Under the pieces are notes generated by a model. The model was given only the letters and a program-made list of their open reading frames with translations. It was not told the origin of the DNA and did not search any database. From IMG/VR virus record IMGVR_UViG_3300045988_122510, positions 1 through 36,974 of that record: a DNA stretch of 36,974 bases. One strand, written 5' to 3'. The first letter of the stretch is position 1. Every line of letters starts with the position of its first letter. The position numbers and the translations under genes were made by a program. Below are positions 2,529 to 23,396 of this stretch, in pieces. Origin of the DNA: a virus.

Positions 2529-2881
2529 AATTAGAAATTGGACAATTTGTTAGAACTAAAGATGGAATTATAGCAAAAGTAGATTACATAGATGATAATA
2601 CAATATTTTTTGATAAAGACCTTTATAGAACTTATGGTGATAGTATTAACTTTTTAGAAAAAGATAATTTAGAAAAAATAGTTAAAGCCAGTTATAACAT
2701 AATTGATATTTTGAAAGTTGGAGATTACGTTAATGGAGTTGAGGTAATTAATATTGATGATGAATGGATAACAACGAGTGATATACAAGTTCCAATATTA
2801 AAATCAATAGCAAATGGAATGATTAAATCAGTTATTACACACGAACAAATGGAGCAAATGGCTTATAAGGTAGGTGAGTAA
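2525..2881 (+). CDS. hypothetical protein
   Basis: 118-aa ORF with SD GGAG and an ATGA overlap. Confidence 0.6.
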   Translation: MKLEIGQFVRTKDGIIAKVDYIDDNTIFFDKDLYRTYGDSINFLEKDNLEKIVKASYNIIDILKVGDYVNGVEVINIDDEWITTSDIQVPILKSIANGMIKSVITHEQMEQMAYKVGE

Positions 2882-2883
2882 AG

Positions 2884-3084
2884 ATGAGTGAACATTTAAA
2901 ATTAGTTAAAGAAAATGCTTATATGAAATTATGCATTATACAATTAATAGAAGAATTAAAAGATAATGGGAAAGCGAAAGTTATTAAAGATTATTTGGTT
3001 GATGTTATTGATGGAGTTTATGGGAATACTCTAGGAGATAATAAAGAAAACTATTTTGATAAATTAACAAAGGAACGTGATTAA
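2884..3084 (+). CDS. hypothetical small protein
   Basis: 66-aa ORF with SD GGTGAG. Confidence 0.55.
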   Translation: MSEHLKLVKENAYMKLCIIQLIEELKDNGKAKVIKDYLVDVIDGVYGNTLGDNKENYFDKLTKERD

Positions 3085-4812
3085 ATGATAGATGAAAAAT
3101 TACAAGAAAAGTTGTTAAGTGTATTTGATAAAAGATTTCAAGATTATAATACAAAAGTATTAGAAAAATTAGGAAATGTTATCAAGCAATTTAAAGACTT
3201 AACTCCATCACAGGCTTACGAGTTAGGTCAGCAACTAAAATACAATACAACTGTCAAGGACTTACTAGATGAGTTATCTAAAATAAGTGGCTTGTCTGTT
3301 AAAGACTTGAAAGCAATACTAGAAAAGGTTGCAAAAGAAAACATTGGATTTGCGGATACTTATTATAAATCAAGAGGCTTGGAAACACCTATTTATAGTG
3401 AAAATAAAGCACTACAAAGGCTCGTTAATTCAGTTTATAATATAACTGGCAAAGAATTTAAAAACATTTCCAAAAGCACAGGATTTAGACTTTTGGATAA
3501 GGATAAAAAGCCTTTATTATTAAATATTAACGAAGTTTATAAAGAAGTTATTGATAGAAGTGTAATAGCTGTTAGCGAAGGTAAGGAATCTTACCAACAA
3601 GTTATGAGAAACACACTTCGACAATTGAGTGAAAGTGGAGTTCGTAAAATTGAGTATGAAAGTGGTTACTCTAGAAGAATAGATACAAGTGTTAGGATGA
3701 ATGTTTTAGATGGAATGAGACAAGTGGCAAATGAAAGCCAACAATTATTTGGACAAGAATTTGACAGTGATGGTATAGAAATATCTGTTCATCAAAATCC
3801 AGCTGATGATCATAGCATAGTTCAAGGACGTCAATTTTCAAATAAAGAATATGAAAAATTGCAAGAAACAGGAATTGCTACTGACTATACTGGCAAAGTA
3901 ATTGACATAAATTTAAAAAAGGGATTTAGACCCATATCAACACTCAACTGCTATCATTACATATTTTCAATAGTGTTAGGTGTGAGCAAACCGAGATATA
4001 GTGAAAAAGAATTACAAGATATAAACGAAAAGAATAAAAAAGGGTTTGAATTTGAGGGTAAACATTATACAATGTATGAAGGCACACAATTACAAAGAAA
4101 AATCGAAACTGCTATTCGTGAAGCAAAAGATACACAAATATTGGCTAAATCAAGTGGTGATGATGATTTGGTATTACAAAGCCAAACAAGAATTACACAA
4201 TTAACTACTAAATACAAAAAATTATGTAACGTTAGTGGACTACCTGATAAGTTATCTACTAGAGCAAGTGTAAGTGGCTATAAAAGAACTAAAATTAATA
4301 AAAAACCAAGTATAGTAAAATTTAAAAATGAAGTTGATTTTACTAAAAGCAATCATCCTAAGCCAATTTTGCTTGAAAAAATAGAACGAAAACAAATTGA
4401 TCAAAGAATAACATATTATGAAGATTTAATAAGAAAAAGCGATATAGAAAATGCTATTATTGTAACTAAAAATAATGAAGTTTATCAATGCTTTGGAAAT
4501 AAAGATAACGTATGGCCTGATATTGATTTACCTGATAAATTAGAAAATGCCATTGTGACTCATAATCATTTGAAGGAAAAAACAAGTTTTACATTTAGTA
4601 ATGATGATATTTCATTTTTTGAAAAGAACAAATTAAAAAAATTAAGAGGAACTGATTATAAATACGTTTATGAATTAGATAAAAATGGCAAACCCACATT
4701 AAAAGAACCATTGCTTGACGAAATGGTAGAAGATGGTTCTCTTGAATATATAAAAGCAATAAATTATGCCATTAAAAATGATATTTCTTTTAAAAGATGG
4801 AGACTAAAATGA
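3085..4812 (+). CDS. head morphogenesis / minor capsid protein (MuF, SPP1 gp7-like) with a ~170-aa C-terminal extension
   Basis: Family-typical block YSRRIDTSVRMNVLDGMRQV...GIEISVHQNPADDHSIVQGRQFS, followed by GKHYTMYEGTQLQRKIE. At 575 aa it is longer than the core domain. Confidence 0.8.
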   Translation: MIDEKLQEKLLSVFDKRFQDYNTKVLEKLGNVIKQFKDLTPSQAYELGQQLKYNTTVKDLLDELSKISGLSVKDLKAILEKVAKENIGFADTYYKSRGLETPIYSENKALQRLVNSVYNITGKEFKNISKSTGFRLLDKDKKPLLLNINEVYKEVIDRSVIAVSEGKESYQQVMRNTLRQLSESGVRKIEYESGYSRRIDTSVRMNVLDGMRQVANESQQLFGQEFDSDGIEISVHQNPADDHSIVQGRQFSNKEYEKLQETGIATDYTGKVIDINLKKGFRPISTLNCYHYIFSIVLGVSKPRYSEKELQDINEKNKKGFEFEGKHYTMYEGTQLQRKIETAIREAKDTQILAKSSGDDDLVLQSQTRITQLTTKYKKLCNVSGLPDKLSTRASVSGYKRTKINKKPSIVKFKNEVDFTKSNHPKPILLEKIERKQIDQRITYYEDLIRKSDIENAIIVTKNNEVYQCFGNKDNVWPDIDLPDKLENAIVTHNHLKEKTSFTFSNDDISFFEKNKLKKLRGTDYKYVYELDKNGKPTLKEPLLDEMVEDGSLEYIKAINYAIKNDISFKRWRLK

Positions 4813-4813
4813 A

Positions 4814-4843
4814 TTTACAAAAAATAAATTAATGTGATATAAT
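4814..4843 (+). promoter_or_regulatory. sigma-A type promoter for the non-coding locus
   Basis: TTTACA (4814-4819), 18-nt spacer, TGaTATAAT extended -10 (4835-4843). Confidence 0.6.
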
Positions 4844-4887
4844 TAATGCAGTGGAAAAAGTGTTTTACAATTTCCTTGCGTGTTACC

Positions 4888-5043
4888 TTTATAGGTAGCA
4901 TATTGAGTAAATAAAGAGAGAATGTTAGAGAGGACGTGTCTAACTGGTCGAACCTATTGTTACTATATCTATGGTACCTGATAGTGATAAAGGGCAATAG
5001 GAATGGAATCGAAATTTTATTTACTCAGTATGGTGCTTATAAG
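4888..5043 (+). ncRNA. structured RNA module U1 (about 28 positions of basal helix closing a ~100-nt branched apical domain)
   Basis: 4888-4915 pairs with 5016-5043, with 4 G-U pairs and one G/G mismatch. Internal hairpins are GTTAGA/TCTAAC (4923-4943) and CCTATTG/CAATAGG (4953-5002). Confidence 0.6.
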
Positions 5044-5223
5044 CCTATTTTCCCGTGTGGAGGTAAGATTTAAGCATTATTATTGATATGTAAAGTTAGA
5101 AGTGATAAGACACTTAAAAATCTATCTTGCAAGTACTACATATCAATTCATATACTTCATTGATTAGTTAAAATACGAATGTATGTAGGCTAGTTTGACA
5201 TTATAGTATATGCTTGCTATCTC

Positions 5224-5358
5224 TTGTAGGTAGCATATCGAGTAAATATAAAATAGAGCTCTTGGTAGAGTCTGGGTGCGTACGCCAATCCAAAACTAAG
5301 ACAATGGGGTATAGGTTCGATTCCTATTGATTATATTTACTTGATATGCTGCTTGTAA
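5224..5358 (+). ncRNA. structured RNA module U2 (28-bp basal helix closing a tRNA-like domain)
   Basis: 5224-5251 pairs with 5331-5358 with no mismatch and 5 G-U pairs. The apical 79 nt contain a D-arm-like GCTC-TTGGTA-GAGT (5258-5271) and a canonical T arm ATAGG-TTCGATT-CCTAT (5311-5327). Confidence 0.65.
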
Positions 5359-5499
5359 ATACTAGCAGTCTATAAATGTGTTCCAGAATGGAGTAAATCA
5401 AGAAATTGATGTAGAAATCATCTTTATAGGCAATAAGCACTTATGCAAATAATATATACTTCATTACATTAGCTGCCATTGTTATATATTGACTATCTC

Positions 5500-5592
5500 T
5501 AGTAGGTAGTGTCTAGTGATATAGAAACAACTAGTATCATGTAGCTACTAATCGAGGCTAGGCTCGTATATATCATTAGACAGTATCTATTA
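5500..5592 (+). ncRNA. structured RNA module U3 (24-position basal helix, ~45-nt apical domain)
   Basis: 5500-5523 pairs with 5569-5592, with 3 G-U pairs and a G/G mismatch at the same place as in U1. It has the same TAGGTAG start as U1 and U2 but a different, co-varying helix sequence. Confidence 0.55.
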
Positions 5593-5610
5593 AGATACAT
5601 GAACTGAAAG

Positions 5611-5635
5611 GCAACCTTAATGGTTGTTTTTTTTT
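5611..5635 (+). terminator. intrinsic terminator ending the non-coding locus
   Basis: Hairpin CAACC-ttaat-GGTTG followed by a run of 9 T. Confidence 0.6.
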
Positions 5636-5641
5636 GTGTAT

Positions 5642-5670
5642 TTGATTTTTTTTAGTAAATATGATATAAT
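5642..5670 (+). promoter_or_regulatory. sigma-A type promoter
   Basis: TTGATT, 17-nt spacer, TATAAT, with a TG extension (TGaTATAAT, 5662-5670). Confidence 0.55.
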
Positions 5671-5699
5671 CTATCTAGTGATTAAAGGTAGGCGAGTTA

Positions 5700-5825
5700 A
5701 TGAAAGAATATCGTTGTATTTGTGGGAAACTCTTATTTAAAGGCAAATTTAAAGGTATTATTTCAATAATGTGCCGACATTGTAAAAAATTGATAGAGTT
5801 CCATTCAGAGAGCCAAGATAAATAA
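5700..5825 (+). CDS. Com-like zinc-finger protein (phage Mu Com family), 41 aa, not in the ORF track
   Basis: Translation is MKEYRCICGKLLFKGKFKGIISIMCRHCKKLIEFHSESQDK. This gives CxC...CxxC with the KLLFK signature of Mu Com. SD AGGTAGG lies upstream. Confidence 0.6.
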   Translation: MKEYRCICGKLLFKGKFKGIISIMCRHCKKLIEFHSESQDK

Positions 5826-5981: not shown

Positions 5982-5987
5982 ATGAAT

Positions 5988-6545
5988 ATGAAGAGAGAAT
6001 TCTTGAAAGGCTTAGAATTGGAAGATGAAATGATTGATAAGATTATGGCTGAATATGGTAAATCTATATCAAGTGAAAAAGCAAAGATTGATGACTTAAC
6101 ATCTAAATTAGAGGCTAGCAATACTAAGATAGCAGAATACGAAACAAAAGTTACTAATCTTGAAAAAGTTTCAAGTGACAGTGCCAAAGTTCAAGAAGAA
6201 TTAGACAACTTAAAAAAATCAATAGCAGAAAATGAAGCAAAAGCAAAAGCAAAAGCAGAAGATGACGCTTTGACAAAAAATATTACAAGTGCATTTGGAG
6301 ATAAAAAGTTCGTAAATGAATATACAAAAAATGCAATTATAGGCGACATTAAAACTGCTTTAAAGGACAGCAACAATGCTGGAAAATCTGCAAAAGATTT
6401 ATTTGAGGAGTTAACAAAAGACAAGGAAGGAATATTTGACAATCCTAACAAAGGAGTTTCAACTCCGCCAACAGGAGATGTTAATACTGGACTTGCAAAA
6501 GAAAATCACGATAGGGAACTATTGGGATTGGATTTAAAAAAATAA
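5988..6545 (+). CDS. capsid scaffolding protein (GP20-like)
   Basis: N-terminus MKREFLKGLELEDEMIDKIMAEYGKSI, then a charged coiled coil. It lies immediately upstream of the capsid gene. ATG 5988 has better spacing from AAGGAGG than the ATG at 5982. Confidence 0.75.
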   Translation: MKREFLKGLELEDEMIDKIMAEYGKSISSEKAKIDDLTSKLEASNTKIAEYETKVTNLEKVSSDSAKVQEELDNLKKSIAENEAKAKAKAEDDALTKNITSAFGDKKFVNEYTKNAIIGDIKTALKDSNNAGKSAKDLFEELTKDKEGIFDNPNKGVSTPPTGDVNTGLAKENHDRELLGLDLKK

Positions 6546-6566: not shown

Positions 6567-6835
6567 ATGGCTAACGTAATCGCATTAGCAAAGAAATATA
6601 CTCGTCTTGTTGATGAAAAATATCAAAAAGAGAGTTTAACAAATGATTTAACTAGCCCAGCTTCACTTGCTAGAGAAGGAGCTAACGCAAAAGAAATTCT
6701 TTATAGACAAGTAGGAGTTAGTGGATTAGGAGATTATTCAAGAAATAGTGGTTATACAAATAACAGTGTAACTGTTGAATGGAAAACTGCTACATTTAAT
6801 TATGATAGAGGTACTAAAATTACTCTAGACACGAT
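6567..6835 (+). CDS. major capsid protein, exon 1
   Basis: Abundant-structural-protein style ORF ending ...FNYDRGTKITLDT. The frame hits a stop 6 codons past the proposed 5' splice site. Confidence 0.75.
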
Positions 6836-7616
6836 AAACTTAGTTTGTGCTTAATCTGTCGTGTATAAATCCCTGAATTAAGCTGGAAAGCTAAGTTCAA
6901 TATATGGTATAATATATATAGGTGATAATATGAAATGTATTTGTTCAATTTGTAAAAAAGAATTTGACAGAAAACCTGCTTTAATTAAAAGAGCAAAATA
7001 TCCTGTTTGTTCTAGAGAATGCCAAACAGAATTAAAAAAGAAAAGAAAAATAGTACATTGTGTTATATGTGGAAAAGAATTATTAAGAAGTGATAACAGA
7101 TTAGCAATAAGACCTAATCCAACTTGTTCAAAAGAGTGTAAGGCAAAACTTCAACATAAATTATCATATAATCCAAATATAACCGATGAAGAAAGAGAAC
7201 AAACAAGAAAAAATCAAAAAAATTATGATTTTATTAAAATAGTTTTACAAAGAGATAATTATACTTGCCAATTATGTGGCGAATATGGGCAAAAGTTAGT
7301 TGTTCATCATCTAAATGGATATAATTGGGATAAAGAAAATAGATATAATGTAGACAATGGAATAACATTATGTGAAAAATGCCATAAAGCATTTCATAAA
7401 ATATATAGAAATGGAAATAATACCAAAGAACAATATATTGAATACGCTAATCAGAACCGAAGGCTAGATTAAGTCTAGTCAGGGGCAACGCATAGTAGGT
7501 GAAAAGATATAATCCTACCACGAGGCAGGGACAACTTAAAAGTTGAAAAGATATGCTGAGCTTATAGGAAACTATAAGAAGTAAAAGATAAAAAGCTTTT
7601 ACGATAACAAAAAATG
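6836..7616 (+). mobile_element. group I intron (781 nt) in the major capsid gene
   Basis: P1: exon ACACGAT (6829-6835) pairs with GTCGTGT (6858-6864), with a U-G pair at the splice site. P10: exon 2 GGAT (7617-7620) pairs with ATCT (6854-6857). The intron ends in G. Exon lengths 269+613 = 882 nt, in frame. Confidence 0.75.
6930..7472 (+). CDS. intron-encoded HNH homing endonuclease
   Basis: HNH core CQLCGEYGQKLVVHHLNGYNWDKENRYNVDNGITLCEKCHKAFH. Two N-terminal CxxC...C zinc-ribbon repeats. It has its own TGgTATAAT (6905-6913) and an SD. Confidence 0.85.
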   Translation: MKCICSICKKEFDRKPALIKRAKYPVCSRECQTELKKKRKIVHCVICGKELLRSDNRLAIRPNPTCSKECKAKLQHKLSYNPNITDEEREQTRKNQKNYDFIKIVLQRDNYTCQLCGEYGQKLVVHHLNGYNWDKENRYNVDNGITLCEKCHKAFHKIYRNGNNTKEQYIEYANQNRRLD

Positions 7617-8229
7617 GGATAATGAAGAAACAATGGGAGATACTTATTTAATCGCTCAAAATTCATTACAAACTTATCAAGTAGCACCAGAAGGAGACGC
7701 ATTCACATTTGCTACAATCGCTAGCAAAGCTGGTATTTCTGTATCAGCAGAAGATGGTGAAACATTCGCAGATGGAGAAGCATTCTTAACAGCATTATTA
7801 AAAGGTGTTACAAAAATGGACGAAGACCAAGTTCCAGCAGAAAATAGAATATTATATGCTACACCAACATTATTAAATAGTGTTATGGCATTAGATACTA
7901 CTAAATCAAGAGAAGTATTAGGAAAATTTGCAAAGACTGTTGCAATTCCACAAACTCGTTTCTATACTAAAATTGACTTATTAGATGGAACATCAAGTAA
8001 TGAAGAAATGGGTGGATTTAAGAAAGATGTTGCTGGTAAAGATATTAACTTTATGATTATTCACAAACCAGCTGTTATCAAATTTGATAAACATGTTGTA
8101 TCAGACGCAATTCCACCAGAATTAAATGCAGACGCTGACGCATATATCTCTAAATATAGAAAATATGGTTTAGTTGATGTATTTAACAACAAAACTGCTG
8201 GTATCTATATTTCATACAAAGCAGCATAA
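7617..8229 (+). CDS. major capsid protein, exon 2
   Basis: The frame is open from 7585. Splicing creates ...DRGTKITLDT-M-DNEETMGDTYLIAQ... The composite protein is 293 aa. Confidence 0.75.
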
Positions 8230-17838: not shown

Positions 17839-18021
17839 ATGAAAAAAACAGTTAAATATGCTTTAAATATACTTGCAATAATCAATGCTTTAATAATTGG
17901 TATTGCTCCAATTTGGAATATAAATGCTGACAAAGTAACCAATACTATAGCAGTGATTATAGCAGTGTTCAGTACTTATCTGTTAGGAGATAAAGCGGCT
18001 ACAAAAATAGGAGGGAAATAA
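17839..18021 (+). CDS. holin
   Basis: 60 aa with two hydrophobic helices and a charged C-terminus. It lies immediately upstream of the endolysin. Confidence 0.65.
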   Translation: MKKTVKYALNILAIINALIIGIAPIWNINADKVTNTIAVIIAVFSTYLLGDKAATKIGGK

Positions 18022-18022
18022 A

Positions 18023-18118
18023 ATGGAAAAAGAAATAGTAACACCGACCGAGGCAATAATTGACAAAGAGCCAGAGGTTACAATAATGAAGCAAATAGAA
18101 GATGAAAAGGAGGATTAA
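18023..18118 (+). CDS. tiny acidic ORF (31 aa), not in the ORF track
   Basis: SD GGAGGG upstream. Translation is MEKEIVTPTEAIIDKEPEVTIMKQIEDEKED. Confidence 0.35.
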   Translation: MEKEIVTPTEAIIDKEPEVTIMKQIEDEKED

Positions 18119-18120
18119 TT

Positions 18121-18187
18121 ATGAATTTTCAAGAATTTATCAATAAAACTTTAGGAAAGGCTATTGATGTAGATGGAGTATATGGGT
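18121..18187 (+). CDS. CHAP-domain endolysin, exon 1
   Basis: SD AAGGAGG upstream. Translation is MNFQEFINKTLGKAIDVDGVYG. The frame stops 2 codons past the proposed splice site. Confidence 0.8.
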
Positions 18188-19033
18188 TAAATTAATTGTG
18201 GCTCATGTAAAATCAGGTGAATTGCTGGAACACCCTTAGAGCCTTATAAACTACAACATAGTTAGTAATAACAAGTGTGAATGTTTGAAAATTATAAGGA
18301 TTGGGCAATCAGCAACCAAGTATCATTGGTAACAGGTGATAAAGGCTTAACGACTAAGTACTTACAATCGTAAGTTAGTGCCTGATAATGTAATCATTTT
18401 GAAATATTATTACTTTGGGGTATAATAGACATAAACGAGGCGATAATATGAAAATAAAACATGGTATGTGTGGTACAAAAGCATATCAAGCATGGAAAGC
18501 GATGAAGCAAAGATGTTATAACAAAAATTATGAACATTATGATAGATACGGTGGCAGAGGAATAAAAGTATCAGAAGAATGGATTAATTCTTTTGAAGTA
18601 TTTTATAAAGATATGGGAAAGCCTCCAACTTCGAAACATCAAATAGATAGAATAAATAATGACGGCAATTATTGTAAAGATAATTGCAGATGGGCAACAC
18701 CATCAGAAAATTGTTATAATAGAAAAAAATATTTTAATAAGACAGGATTTACAGGTGTTAGTGAAAACACTAGCAAAAAAGGAAGATATTCAGCATATTT
18801 CTTCTACAAAAGGAAACATATACAAGTCGGAACATTTGCAAGTCCTGAAGAAGCATATCGTGAAAGAATAAAAGCAATAAAGAAATTCAACAAAGAAAAT
18901 AATGAGAATTTAAAATATATTGAATATGAAGATTACATTAAAGATATAGTCTGACCTTATGTGAAAGCATAAGAGAATTATTATAAAAACATAAAAAGAA
19001 ATTATTATGTGGAGAGATAATTCGTAACAATTG
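18188..19033 (+). mobile_element. group I intron (846 nt) in the endolysin gene
   Basis: The internal guide TTGTGGCTCAT (18196-18206) pairs with the ligated exons ATGGGT|CACAA. P1 is 18182-18187 with a U-G pair at the splice site. P10 is 19034-19038. The intron ends in G. Exon lengths 67+701 = 768 nt, in frame. Confidence 0.85.
18448..18954 (+). CDS. intron-encoded HNH (HNH_3-type) endonuclease with an AP2-like DNA-binding domain
   Basis: IDRINNDGNYCKDNCRWATPSENCYN is the HNH_3 core. FTGVS...YSAYFFYKRKHIQVGTFASPEEAYRERIKA is AP2-like. ATG 18448 follows an SD. The track start at 18415 is a TTG. Confidence 0.8.
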   Translation: MKIKHGMCGTKAYQAWKAMKQRCYNKNYEHYDRYGGRGIKVSEEWINSFEVFYKDMGKPPTSKHQIDRINNDGNYCKDNCRWATPSENCYNRKKYFNKTGFTGVSENTSKKGRYSAYFFYKRKHIQVGTFASPEEAYRERIKAIKKFNKENNENLKYIEYEDYIKDIV

Positions 19034-19734
19034 CACAATGCGTAGATTTATTTAACTACTTTAACAAACTATACAATAACGGAGTATATATTAACTGTAG
19101 ACCAAGTGGTTATGCACGCTCTATAGCTCAAAACAAGGCAAATAATGGACTATTAAACTACTATACCGAAACTACAGTAAATAATATGATTTTCGGAACT
19201 GTTGTTGTTTGGGGTGAGTGTAGAATAGCACCTAAGAGTCATATAGGCTTTTTCCTAGAAGATAATGGAAATGGAACTTTCAAATGCTTACAGCAGAATG
19301 CACCGAAACCATACACTACTATCAATAATATGCCATACGAGGGCATTATAGGAGCATTCATTCCTAAACAGTTAATTAGGCAAGAACAACCTAAAGAAGC
19401 TGACCAAGTGCTTAGTATAGGCTCTAGAGTTAAGTTTAATGGAATGTTTAAAGTAACTTGTTTAGACATACCTCATAATTTATTTGGTAGTACACAACTA
19501 ACTGGTAGAACAGTAGCAAGTTATCATTGGTTGCCTAGTGAAGACTTTACAGAAGTAGATGGGAATGGAAATCCTACCGAAGACCAAATGTTAGGAATTG
19601 GAAGCTTAGTTAAAAATGACAAGATTTATACAGTACAAGCTACTGATAAGAAATCTAATTCTGCTATGTTAAATATTAACGGTAGAACAGTATGGGTATT
19701 TAGTGGAAATTTATATGAGGTAAGCAATTCGTGA
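19034..19734 (+). CDS. CHAP-domain endolysin, exon 2 (CHAP core plus SH3b-like repeats)
   Basis: Splicing gives DVDGVYG-S-QCVDLFNYF, which contains the CHAP catalytic Cys motif. The His motif SHIGFFLED lies downstream. The C-terminus has two IGS-x-VK repeats. Confidence 0.8.
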
Positions 19735-23319: not shown

Positions 23320-23396
23320 GGGTAGATACTCAAGTGGTCTAAGAGGCAAATCTGCAAAATTTGTATTCATGGGTTCGAATCCCATTCTGCCCTCCA
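23320..23396 (+). tRNA. tRNA-Cys (anticodon GCA) with an encoded CCA
   Basis: Hand-folded cloverleaf. Acceptor GGGTAGA/TCTGCCC. Anticodon stem CAAAT/ATTTG with loop CTGCAAA. T arm ATGGG-TTCGAAT-CCCAT. Discriminator U73, a Cys identity element. A13/A22 mismatch. Confidence 0.8.

Follow-up and report, generated by a model that had tools for sequence, protein, structure and literature searches.

A probable mobile group I intron carrying an HNH-AP2 endonuclease gene at the catalytic cysteine motif of a CHAP endolysin gene in an uncultured gut phage

Group I introns of phages infecting Gram-positive bacteria include Twort nrdE-I2, the DNA polymerase introns of SPO1 and SP82 with I-HmuI/II, and the lysin introns of Streptococcus thermophilus phages. 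Like the element described here, these introns have HNH nucleases, often placed in the P8 loop, and lie at codons for functionally critical residues. Here we analysed such an element in IMG/VR record IMGVR_UViG_3300045988_122510 (the window: the whole record of 36,974 nucleotides (nt), with coordinates counted from its first base), in which positions 18188-19033 are very probably a mobile group I intron interrupting the sole frame able to encode the catalytic Cys of a CHAP endolysin. Its anatomy, homology, covariation, presence/absence polymorphism and purifying selection are shown here by computation. The Twort nrdE-I2 and SPO1/SP82 introns lie in different host genes from this one. Targeting of critical codons has been reviewed as a general feature, and overlap of an open reading frame (ORF) with the intron core as a known general arrangement (PMC3984707). 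Of 205 endolysins from staphylococcal phages, 20 are split by introns (PMC9430571), and a preprint (10.64898/2026.06.13.732091) cites a report of spliced lysK RNA in vB_SauM-515A1. In the tail-associated hydrolase gene of phage DW2, a putative intron similar to that of Twort has been described (Keary et al. 2014, PMC4124061).

Among split lysins, the phage K-type lysK intron with I-KsaI (ksaI) and the similar split lysin of the Staphylococcus phage PT1-4 (L001) offer a direct comparison. The 5' core of the window's intron is ~80% identical to that of PT1-4. In contrast, the lysK and PT1-4 introns lie between the CHAP and amidase regions rather than at the Cys motif, and the PT1-4 ORF follows P9 and belongs to another nuclease family (NUMOD4 + HNH_3). 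In the window, the interrupted gene is laid out as follows:

18121..18187, + strand: endolysin exon 1, made up of 22 codons (MNFQEFINKTLGKAIDVDGVYG) and one further base (T), with which the N-termini of uninterrupted homologues align.
18182..18206, + strand: P1 hairpin, with exon strand AUGGGU at 18182-18187, loop at 18188-18200 and guide strand GCUCAU at 18201-18206.
18188..19033, + strand: predicted group I intron of 846 nt, without P2, with a P7.1 hairpin and with an ORF in the P8 loop.
19034..19734, + strand: endolysin exon 2 and stop codon, completing the Ser23 codon, followed by Gln24, Cys25 (TGC, 19039-19041), His92 (CAT, 19240-19242) and a C-terminal cell-wall-binding region.

A Shine-Dalgarno (SD) sequence, AAGGAGGA, lies upstream of the endolysin ATG at 18121, and exon 1 ends at T18187 (…GGA GTA TAT GGG T); unspliced, its frame continues TTA AAT TAA and stops two codons on. 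The exons of 67 and 701 nt add up to 768 nt, that is, 255 amino acids (aa) and a stop. With the junction marked by a slash, the ligated DNA reads …TATGGGT/CACAATGC… and encodes …DVDGVYG-S-QCVDL…, so that the intron splits codon 23 behind its first base and lies two codons ahead of the catalytic Cys25. The internal guide TTGTGGCTCAT spans 18196-18206. Its P1 pairing contains two wobbles, G18185.U18203 and the splice-site U18187.G18201, and its P10 strand UUGUG (18196-18200) is fully complementary to CACAA (19034-19038). The last intron base is G19033, the omega G. The original prediction had given these exon, guide, P1/P10, G19033 and 768-nt coordinates, a stop two codons after exon 1, and a guide complementary to ATGGGT/CACAA with two G-U pairs, and the sequence bears all of this out. 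By itself, a 6-bp P1 with a terminal U.G is weak evidence, because such a pairing is available within 40 nt for 693 of the window's 10,824 T positions. Contiguous guides that pair both ligated exon ends over 11/11 bases, as found here, arose in only 22 of 200,000 random 40-mers of local composition (~1e-4). Furthermore, P1 in related introns tracks each host exon while keeping the U.G: AUCGCU pairs with GGCGAU in PT1-4, GGAACU with GGUUCC in a Streptococcus pyogenes prophage, and AUGGCU with GGUCAU in L137.

Searches with the spliced product found 254 database homologues, from which 16 full-length uninterrupted ones (46-96% identical) were aligned. These 16 cross the junction without an indel relative to the majority, the spacing D-x-D-G-x-Y-G-x-Q-C is identical in 14 of them, and Q24, C25 and H92 are invariant in the 17 aligned sequences. 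The closest intron-less allele, on the gut-metagenome contig L003, encodes a 96% identical protein, and its DNA is collinear with the ligated exons. In addition, a diverged copy of the same intron, located in the same gene on four Logan contigs (L045-L048, from samples SRR22255883-909), has the identical junction. The splice sites 18187/19034 are thus supported by the homologue alignment and by a second, diverged copy, and the proposed BLASTP comparison returned uninterrupted homologues that fit the junction. In the exon-2 frame, no ATG, GTG or TTG occurs between the TAA at 19018-19020 and the Cys codon at 19039-19041; the first start, at 19186, lies downstream of Cys25. Without splicing, therefore, no Cys-containing enzyme is possible. 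An active enzyme made from a downstream start was considered as an alternative and is ruled out, since 19186 lies past Cys25.

The junction forms the CHAP Cys motif, as had been proposed: a profile of the family matches the solved CHAP domains of lysin L2 and LytN (E ~1e-7), with QC aligned to QC. Moreover, seven endolysin PHROGs match the spliced protein, many of its homologues have precomputed matches to the Pfam CHAP model PF05257, and its C-terminal half resembles the wall-binding end of ScrM.

All core helices from P3 to P9, including the P3/P7 pseudoknot and J8/7, were located in the intron:

18212..18386, + strand: 5' core, with P3 at 18212-18217/18381-18386, P4 at 18223-18228/18309-18314 and P5 at 18233-18235/18303-18305.
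Within 18212..18386, + strand: P5a at 18242-18249/18292-18299 and P5b at 18256-18264/18269-18278, with a GNRA loop.
Within 18212..18386, + strand: P6 at 18316-18317/18344-18345, P6a at 18321-18325/18337-18341, the P7 5' strand at 18352-18356 and P7.1 at 18360-18365/18370-18375.
18387..18939, + strand: P8, a 9-bp perfect stem of AAUGUAAUC (18387-18395) and GAUUACAUU (18931-18939), whose 535-nt loop holds the nuclease gene.
18940..18951, + strand: J8/7 (AAAGAUA) and the P7 3' strand, in which UAGUC (18947-18951) pairs with GACUA (18352-18356).
18956..19033, + strand: 3' domain, with P9 at 18956-18962/18967-18973 (GAAA loop), P9.1 at 18975-18981/19017-19023 (inner stem 18989-18994/19005-19010), a conserved GUAAC motif and the omega G at 19033.

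The J8/7-P7' motif AAGATATAGTC has a single exact occurrence in the 37-kb window, at 18941-18951, and the J8/7 core sequence AAGAUAUAGUC matches exactly. In a 1-kb scan, the Rfam model Intron_gpI (RF00028) was found in two collinear pieces, and the gap between them is the nuclease ORF: 18210-18386 matches model positions 47-158 (P3 to P3'; 31.2 bits, E 6.5e-6) and 18901-18971 matches positions 159-251 (P8' to P9; 20.7 bits, E 0.0095). The PT1-4 lysin intron, which has an uninterrupted core, scores 85.9 bits full-length against the same model. Similar cores were found by blastn in 286 phage records, and an exact 25-mer of P4/P5 is present in 24 IMG/VR contigs. P8 encloses the ORF likewise in L025, L044 and L049, with different stem sequences.

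For covariation analysis, the ORF was removed, the core was aligned by MAFFT with those of 13 relatives (14 introns), and 65 hand-built pairs covering P3, P4, P5, P5a, P5b, P6, P6a, P7, P7.1, P8 and P9 were counted. Standard pairs occupied 88.2% of cells, compared with 31-39% when partners were slid by 1-3 columns; deriving the structure from the window sequence and trimming the alignment partly by hand somewhat inflates the paired percentage. On both sides, 44 pairs were altered, and two-sided changes are free of that bias. The covariation score was 0.499, against 0.08-0.11 in the slid controls, and none of 500 shuffles attained the observed values. P4, P5 and P7 are invariant and hence uninformative, covariation is clean in P5a, P5b, P6a and P9, and P3, P7.1 and P8 covary in close relatives, with distant sequences misaligned by MAFFT and 62-70% paired there. 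Compensatory changes are also seen in L045-L048, where GUUA/UAAC of P5b has become ACUA/UGGU with the GNRA loop kept, and ACUUAC/GUAAGU of P7.1 has become AUUUGC/GCAAGU. The minimum free energy (MFE) fold of the ORF-deleted intron recovers P4, P5, P5a, P7.1, P8, P9 and P9.1. The RF00028 halves, the identity to the PT1-4 core and the P3-P9 covariation together support the identification of 18188-19033 as a group I intron that is predicted to splice.

The same MFE fold contains one further pairing, between UAAUUGU of the P1 loop (18193-18199) and the last seven intron bases, ACAAUUG (19027-19033). This pairing and P10 (18196-18200) exclude each other.

The P8 loop contains a nuclease gene preceded by a promoter-like site:

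18399..18426, + strand: promoter-like site, TTGAAA and TATAAT with a spacer of 16 nt, located within the P8 loop ahead of the nuclease gene, with 11/12 consensus matches.
18448..18954, + strand: predicted HNH-AP2 homing endonuclease ORF of 168 aa, with the SD sequence GAGG at 18437-18440.

The designation as an HNH-AP2 endonuclease, already made in the original prediction, is upheld by the nuclease's match to the HNH family phrog_374 (E 9.6e-57), by AP2 matches among its homologues and by AP2 fold matches in the PDB, the window protein itself falling below the Pfam AP2 threshold (see below). Eight further HNH PHROGs match it and the HNH motif KHQIDRINNDGNYCKDNCRWATPSEN is present; none of the Pfam HNH models matches, and an NCBIfam search gave no match to the nuclease. 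Its homologues number 3,352, several of them named 'AP2 domain-containing protein' at source. Pfam AP2 reached E<=0.01 in 11 of 24 aligned homologues and 33.5 bits, above threshold, in the homologue from BE28. An AlphaFold model built with 22 sequences (predicted local distance difference test score, pLDDT, 85.4) contains a beta-beta-alpha unit at residues 65-93 (strands 65-68 and 80-83, then helix 85-93) and an AP2-like unit at residues 104-151 (strands 104-106, 114-120 and 123-130, helix 133-151). When the fold of the model was compared with the PDB, the five best matches were all to the AP2 domain of Arabidopsis TEM1 (probability 1.00, modest E values of 0.007-0.04, root-mean-square deviation 1.3-3.9 A), followed by a Plasmodium falciparum AP2 domain and WRINKLED1; a PDB search with the nuclease sequence gave nothing significant. 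Between the window and L045 copies, the ratio of nonsynonymous to synonymous substitution rates (dN/dS) is 0.18, so the nuclease protein is under purifying selection.

The last eight nuclease codons and the stop codon (…DYIKDIV, then stop) double as the P8 3' strand, J8/7 and the P7 3' strand. A C-terminus of the form …(D/E)(Y/F)IKDIV before the stop, encoded here by GAUUACAUUAAAGAUAUAGUCUGA (18931-18954), is conserved in many homologues on unrelated contigs. Family members lying in the P8 loop of such introns can be recognised by this …KDIV tail, a signature of shared RNA/protein coding. Upstream, TGnTATAAT occurs at the equivalent place in related introns, and the nuclease ORF probably has its own promoter in addition to a ribosome-binding site. 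An I-TevI-like hairpin that would hide this ribosome-binding site, with the promoter in its loop, was also considered and is not supported: the SD/AUG region of the window pairs with 18404-18417 at z -0.98, L045 folds otherwise (z +0.5), and relatives lack the upstream strand of the putative hairpin. A free-standing gene for a 'hypothetical protein' in Staphylococcus phage vB_SauM_JDYN (L002, Kayvirus; 2684-3370) has 79% DNA identity to the nuclease over 18579-18698 and lies directly downstream of an uninterrupted lysK-type amidase gene.

Cassettes of this kind occupy the CHAP motif in non-orthologous genes, some for endolysins whose cell-wall-binding domains differ and others for tail hydrolases of the virion, in phages of Staphylococcus, Streptococcus and uncultured gut Bacilli. 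The Staphylococcus tail-hydrolase intron is ORF-less in DW2 and has an HNH-AP2 ORF in vB_SepS_BE28 and L025. It is of the same ribozyme lineage as the window's intron (72-74% identity over the 252-nt ORF-deleted core), holds its ORF in the P8 loop with the end running into J8/7, encodes a 47% identical nuclease and is inserted directly before the CHAP Gln-Cys codons (GGT GCT/CAA TGT, the slash again marking the site). Unlike the window's intron, it splits a virion tail hydrolase rather than an endolysin, occurs in phages of a different host genus and is inserted 2 nt further downstream, between codons; its nuclease differs in having 206-209 aa with an N-terminal Cys-rich region, and Glu or Ala at the position of the window's His64. 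A CHAP lysin intron in prophages of S. pyogenes and S. dysgalactiae (L049/L050; Javan phages, INPHARED) encodes a more similar nuclease, P0130 (69% identical, named AP2 at source), likewise in P8 and directly before the CHAP Q-C codons (GGA ACT/CAG TGT). Its junction is confirmed by uninterrupted alleles, such as that of Javan470, which aligns over 71/71 residues in one piece. It differs from the window's intron in an insertion point 2 nt downstream, a lysin combining CHAP with SH3_5, a core of 66% identity and its occurrence in temperate phages of a cultured pathogen. No description of this Streptococcus prophage lysin intron was found in the searchable literature.

The closest relatives of the nuclease, P0122, P0126 and P0127 (73-75% identical), are also in CHAP lysin genes beside Q-C, and the L137 intron is inserted at the window's phase (GGC T/GT CAA TGT). 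For L131-L133 no convincing P1 was found, and an insertion point there is not claimed. Across the cassettes the insertion point varies by 0-2 nt, always after U, and P1 is matched to each host exon. This pattern suggests that one intron/nuclease lineage may have repeatedly colonised the CHAP catalytic motif, and we lean towards regarding the intron with its HNH-AP2 nuclease as a clade of mobile cassettes specialised for the CHAP 'Y-G-x-Q-C' codons rather than for one gene.

Three independent contigs that encode nuclease P0127, L134, L135 and L136, have a related intron whose P1 (AUGGGU/GCUCAU) is the same as in the window. There, A and not G stands where the terminal nucleotide is expected (…GTAACACAATTA/CACAATGC), and the usual spacing is not recovered with any nearby G. 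Joining GGGTT/ with …TTCG/ instead would keep the frame and add four residues before Q-C.

Signs of mobility come from the distribution of the intron and from its flanks. It is absent from all 15 related endolysin loci (IMG/VR, GTDB genomes and one metagenome) and present in the window and in L045-L048, the latter found only through the nuclease protein. When 24 kb of the window was compared by megablast with 50,697 phage records, only two short intron/ORF pieces matched, and the phage has no close sequenced relative within that set. L003, with an intron-less site (…GACGGTCAATATTCTTGTCAATGTGTAGAC…), is ~93% identical to the window overall, and ~11 substitutions fall within 15 nt on either side of the empty site. 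In the compared region (L003 200-240; window 18170-18187 plus 19034-19050), the flanks read GACGGTCAATATTCTT/GTCAATGT in L003 versus GATGGAGTATATGGGT/CACAATGC in the window; the window's flank is common to both intron-bearing variants, and the substitutions in L003 turn GVYGS into GQYSC. This cluster would fit co-conversion combined with P1/P10 constraint, or resistance of the empty site. Furthermore, the window and L045 are mosaic in their identity. The final 393 nt of the intron (18641-19033) agree at 99-100%, against 92% for the 5' ribozyme, 78% for the loop ahead of the ORF, 83% for the ORF's 5' part and 91% for exon 2. Such a pattern suggests a recent recombination or conversion tract ending at or near the 3' splice site.

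Several results weigh against a spliced CHAP endolysin gene with a working ribozyme and a homing nuclease, beyond the inflated pairing percentage and the misaligned distant helices noted above. Neither the Rfam gathering scan nor the whole-window E-value scan matched RF00028, and both pieces from the 1-kb scan lie under the gathering score of 50. The scans missed it owing to the search filters and to the P8 loop of 535 nt, not because a ribozyme is absent; the model is seen only as sub-threshold halves because the ORF-bearing loop interrupts the core. The spliced protein scores 21.9 bits with Pfam CHAP, under the threshold of 26, and the nuclease 13.9 bits (E 0.068) with Pfam AP2 (PF00847), under the threshold of 33.3. 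The nuclease also lacks the N-terminal Cys-rich region of ~60 aa found in most homologues and could, given this absence, be attenuated. Finally, a second in-frame 3' site, G19024, exists and would add three residues. If G19024 and not G19033 were used, 18187 would be joined to 19025 to give a 258-aa enzyme with …GVYG-LTIA-QCVDL; homologues P0042 and P0073 tolerate three extra residues at this place, and UUCG/UAAC is conserved in close relatives. However, the 5-bp P10 pairs 19034-19038 and not UAACA, the shorter spacing is that of 14 of the 16 homologues, the equivalent site in the L137 intron gives a stop whereas the canonical one restores YGCQC, and the intron in the window's major capsid gene, whose ends are fixed by three intron-less relatives, has its terminal G after an (G)AUAAC motif. 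On these four grounds G19024 was rejected as the 3' site, and we regard its use as highly improbable. Slimmer still is the chance that nothing is spliced, and that a free-standing nuclease gene has killed the endolysin, leaving a 24-aa stub and a Cys-less fragment, with lysis brought about by something else. The unmet curated Rfam threshold would be compatible with such a history, and intron-free HNH insertions breaking lysis genes have been proposed for the Sb-1 lineage (preprint 10.64898/2026.06.13.732091), but the core has a complete set of helices with covariation, the guide matches both exon ends (p ~1e-4), two diverged copies conserve both exons, intact and in frame, and exon 2 has no start codon before Cys25. 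In addition, no second lysin was noticed beside the holin-like gene, a full window search for one not having been made.

The remaining alternative accepts splicing and concerns the nuclease, which would be attenuated or inactive. The element would then be a resident intron, no longer mobile and passed on vertically or by ordinary recombination. We consider this unlikely, though well ahead of the two preceding possibilities. The ORF is short, at 168 aa, and without the N-terminal CxxC…CGC region of the 223-235-aa homologues; the presumed catalytic H64 is not conserved in the family, being Tyr or Ala in several members, including those from Staphylococcus; and ordinary recombination could explain the 99-100% identity with L045 over the 3' 393 nt. 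On the other hand, the dN/dS of 0.18 between the two copies speaks for selection on the protein, the window protein has H64, D67, N79 and N91, three more clusters (P0121, P0122 and P0136) also contain short forms, and the presence/absence polymorphism with its substitution cluster fits ongoing homing. A mobile intron with a functional nuclease is the reading we prefer.

Three further features of the window bear on the lysis cassette or stand apart from it, and a first intron lies in the capsid region:

17839-18021: holin-like ORF, 60 aa, hydrophobic, upstream of the endolysin gene.
18023-18118: small ORF, 31 aa, between the holin-like ORF and the endolysin gene.
6836-7616: insert of 781 nt in the major capsid gene (exons 6567-6835 and 7617-8229), with an HNH ORF at 6930-7472.
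23320-23396: a single tRNA-Cys (GCA) gene.

The capsid insert accounts for the description of the lysin intron as the window's second. Comparison by blastn with three intron-less relatives (L051, L052 and L061) breaks exactly at 6835/7617, and ligation of the capsid exons restores …KITLDT-M-DNEETMG…. The insert begins after U and ends in G, and its 3' end (AAAGATATGCTGAGCTTATAGGAAACTATAAG…GATAACAAAAAATG) resembles the J8/7-P9 tail of the lysin intron; RF00028 gave no match to it even in a narrow scan. Its HNH ORF (PF01844, phrog_1271) differs from the lysin-intron nuclease and is preceded by TGGTATAAT and AGGTGAT. Elsewhere, an ORF-poor stretch of ~900 nt, 4815-5700, separates the gene for minor capsid protein 2 (3085-4812) from the scaffold gene (5982-6545) and contains no + strand ORF of >45 aa. 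At the equivalent place, L051 has a free-standing 168-aa HNH-like gene (2228-2734). The stretch may be a decayed nuclease gene or non-coding DNA.

For splicing, cleavage, homing and promoter use, we infer the following course. The lysis cassette would be transcribed from the holin-like gene through the small ORF to the endolysin gene. The intron RNA would fold into its P3-P9 core, with the guide holding first the end of the 5' exon (P1, with U18187.G18201) and then the start of the 3' exon (P10). An external guanosine would attack after U18187, and the freed exon 1 would attack after G19033. Ligation would yield GGG UCA CAA UGC (…Y-G-S-Q-C…) in an mRNA encoding the active 255-aa enzyme. By analogy with characterised phage HNH homing enzymes, the nuclease would act on co-infecting phages whose endolysin allele has no intron, nicking or cutting it near the CHAP motif, and repair would copy into that allele the intron together with a few exon bases on its flanks. 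The 3' end of the nuclease gene runs through P8', J8/7 and P7', so that the RNA core and the protein tail share bases.

Gene callers break this locus up into a stub of 24 aa, an 'HNH' gene and a fragment of 182 aa, starting at 19186, that lacks the Cys, whereas the actual enzyme is most likely the 255-aa product of splicing. By such gene calls the phage would seem to be without a functional endolysin, which matters for lysin mining in gut phages. With this locus, an uncultured gut-phage lineage probably joins those phages that need RNA self-splicing to express their lysis gene. It changes no established concept, since intron-split lysins, HNH-AP2 homing enzymes, active-site insertion and ORF/core overlap are all documented. 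If the cassettes are indeed specialised for the CHAP codons, they would show that in nature a homing element can spread ectopically, directed by a protein domain, into other genes and host genera, and if they are of one lineage, the movement of homing elements between different genes with a domain in common could be studied in a tractable system.

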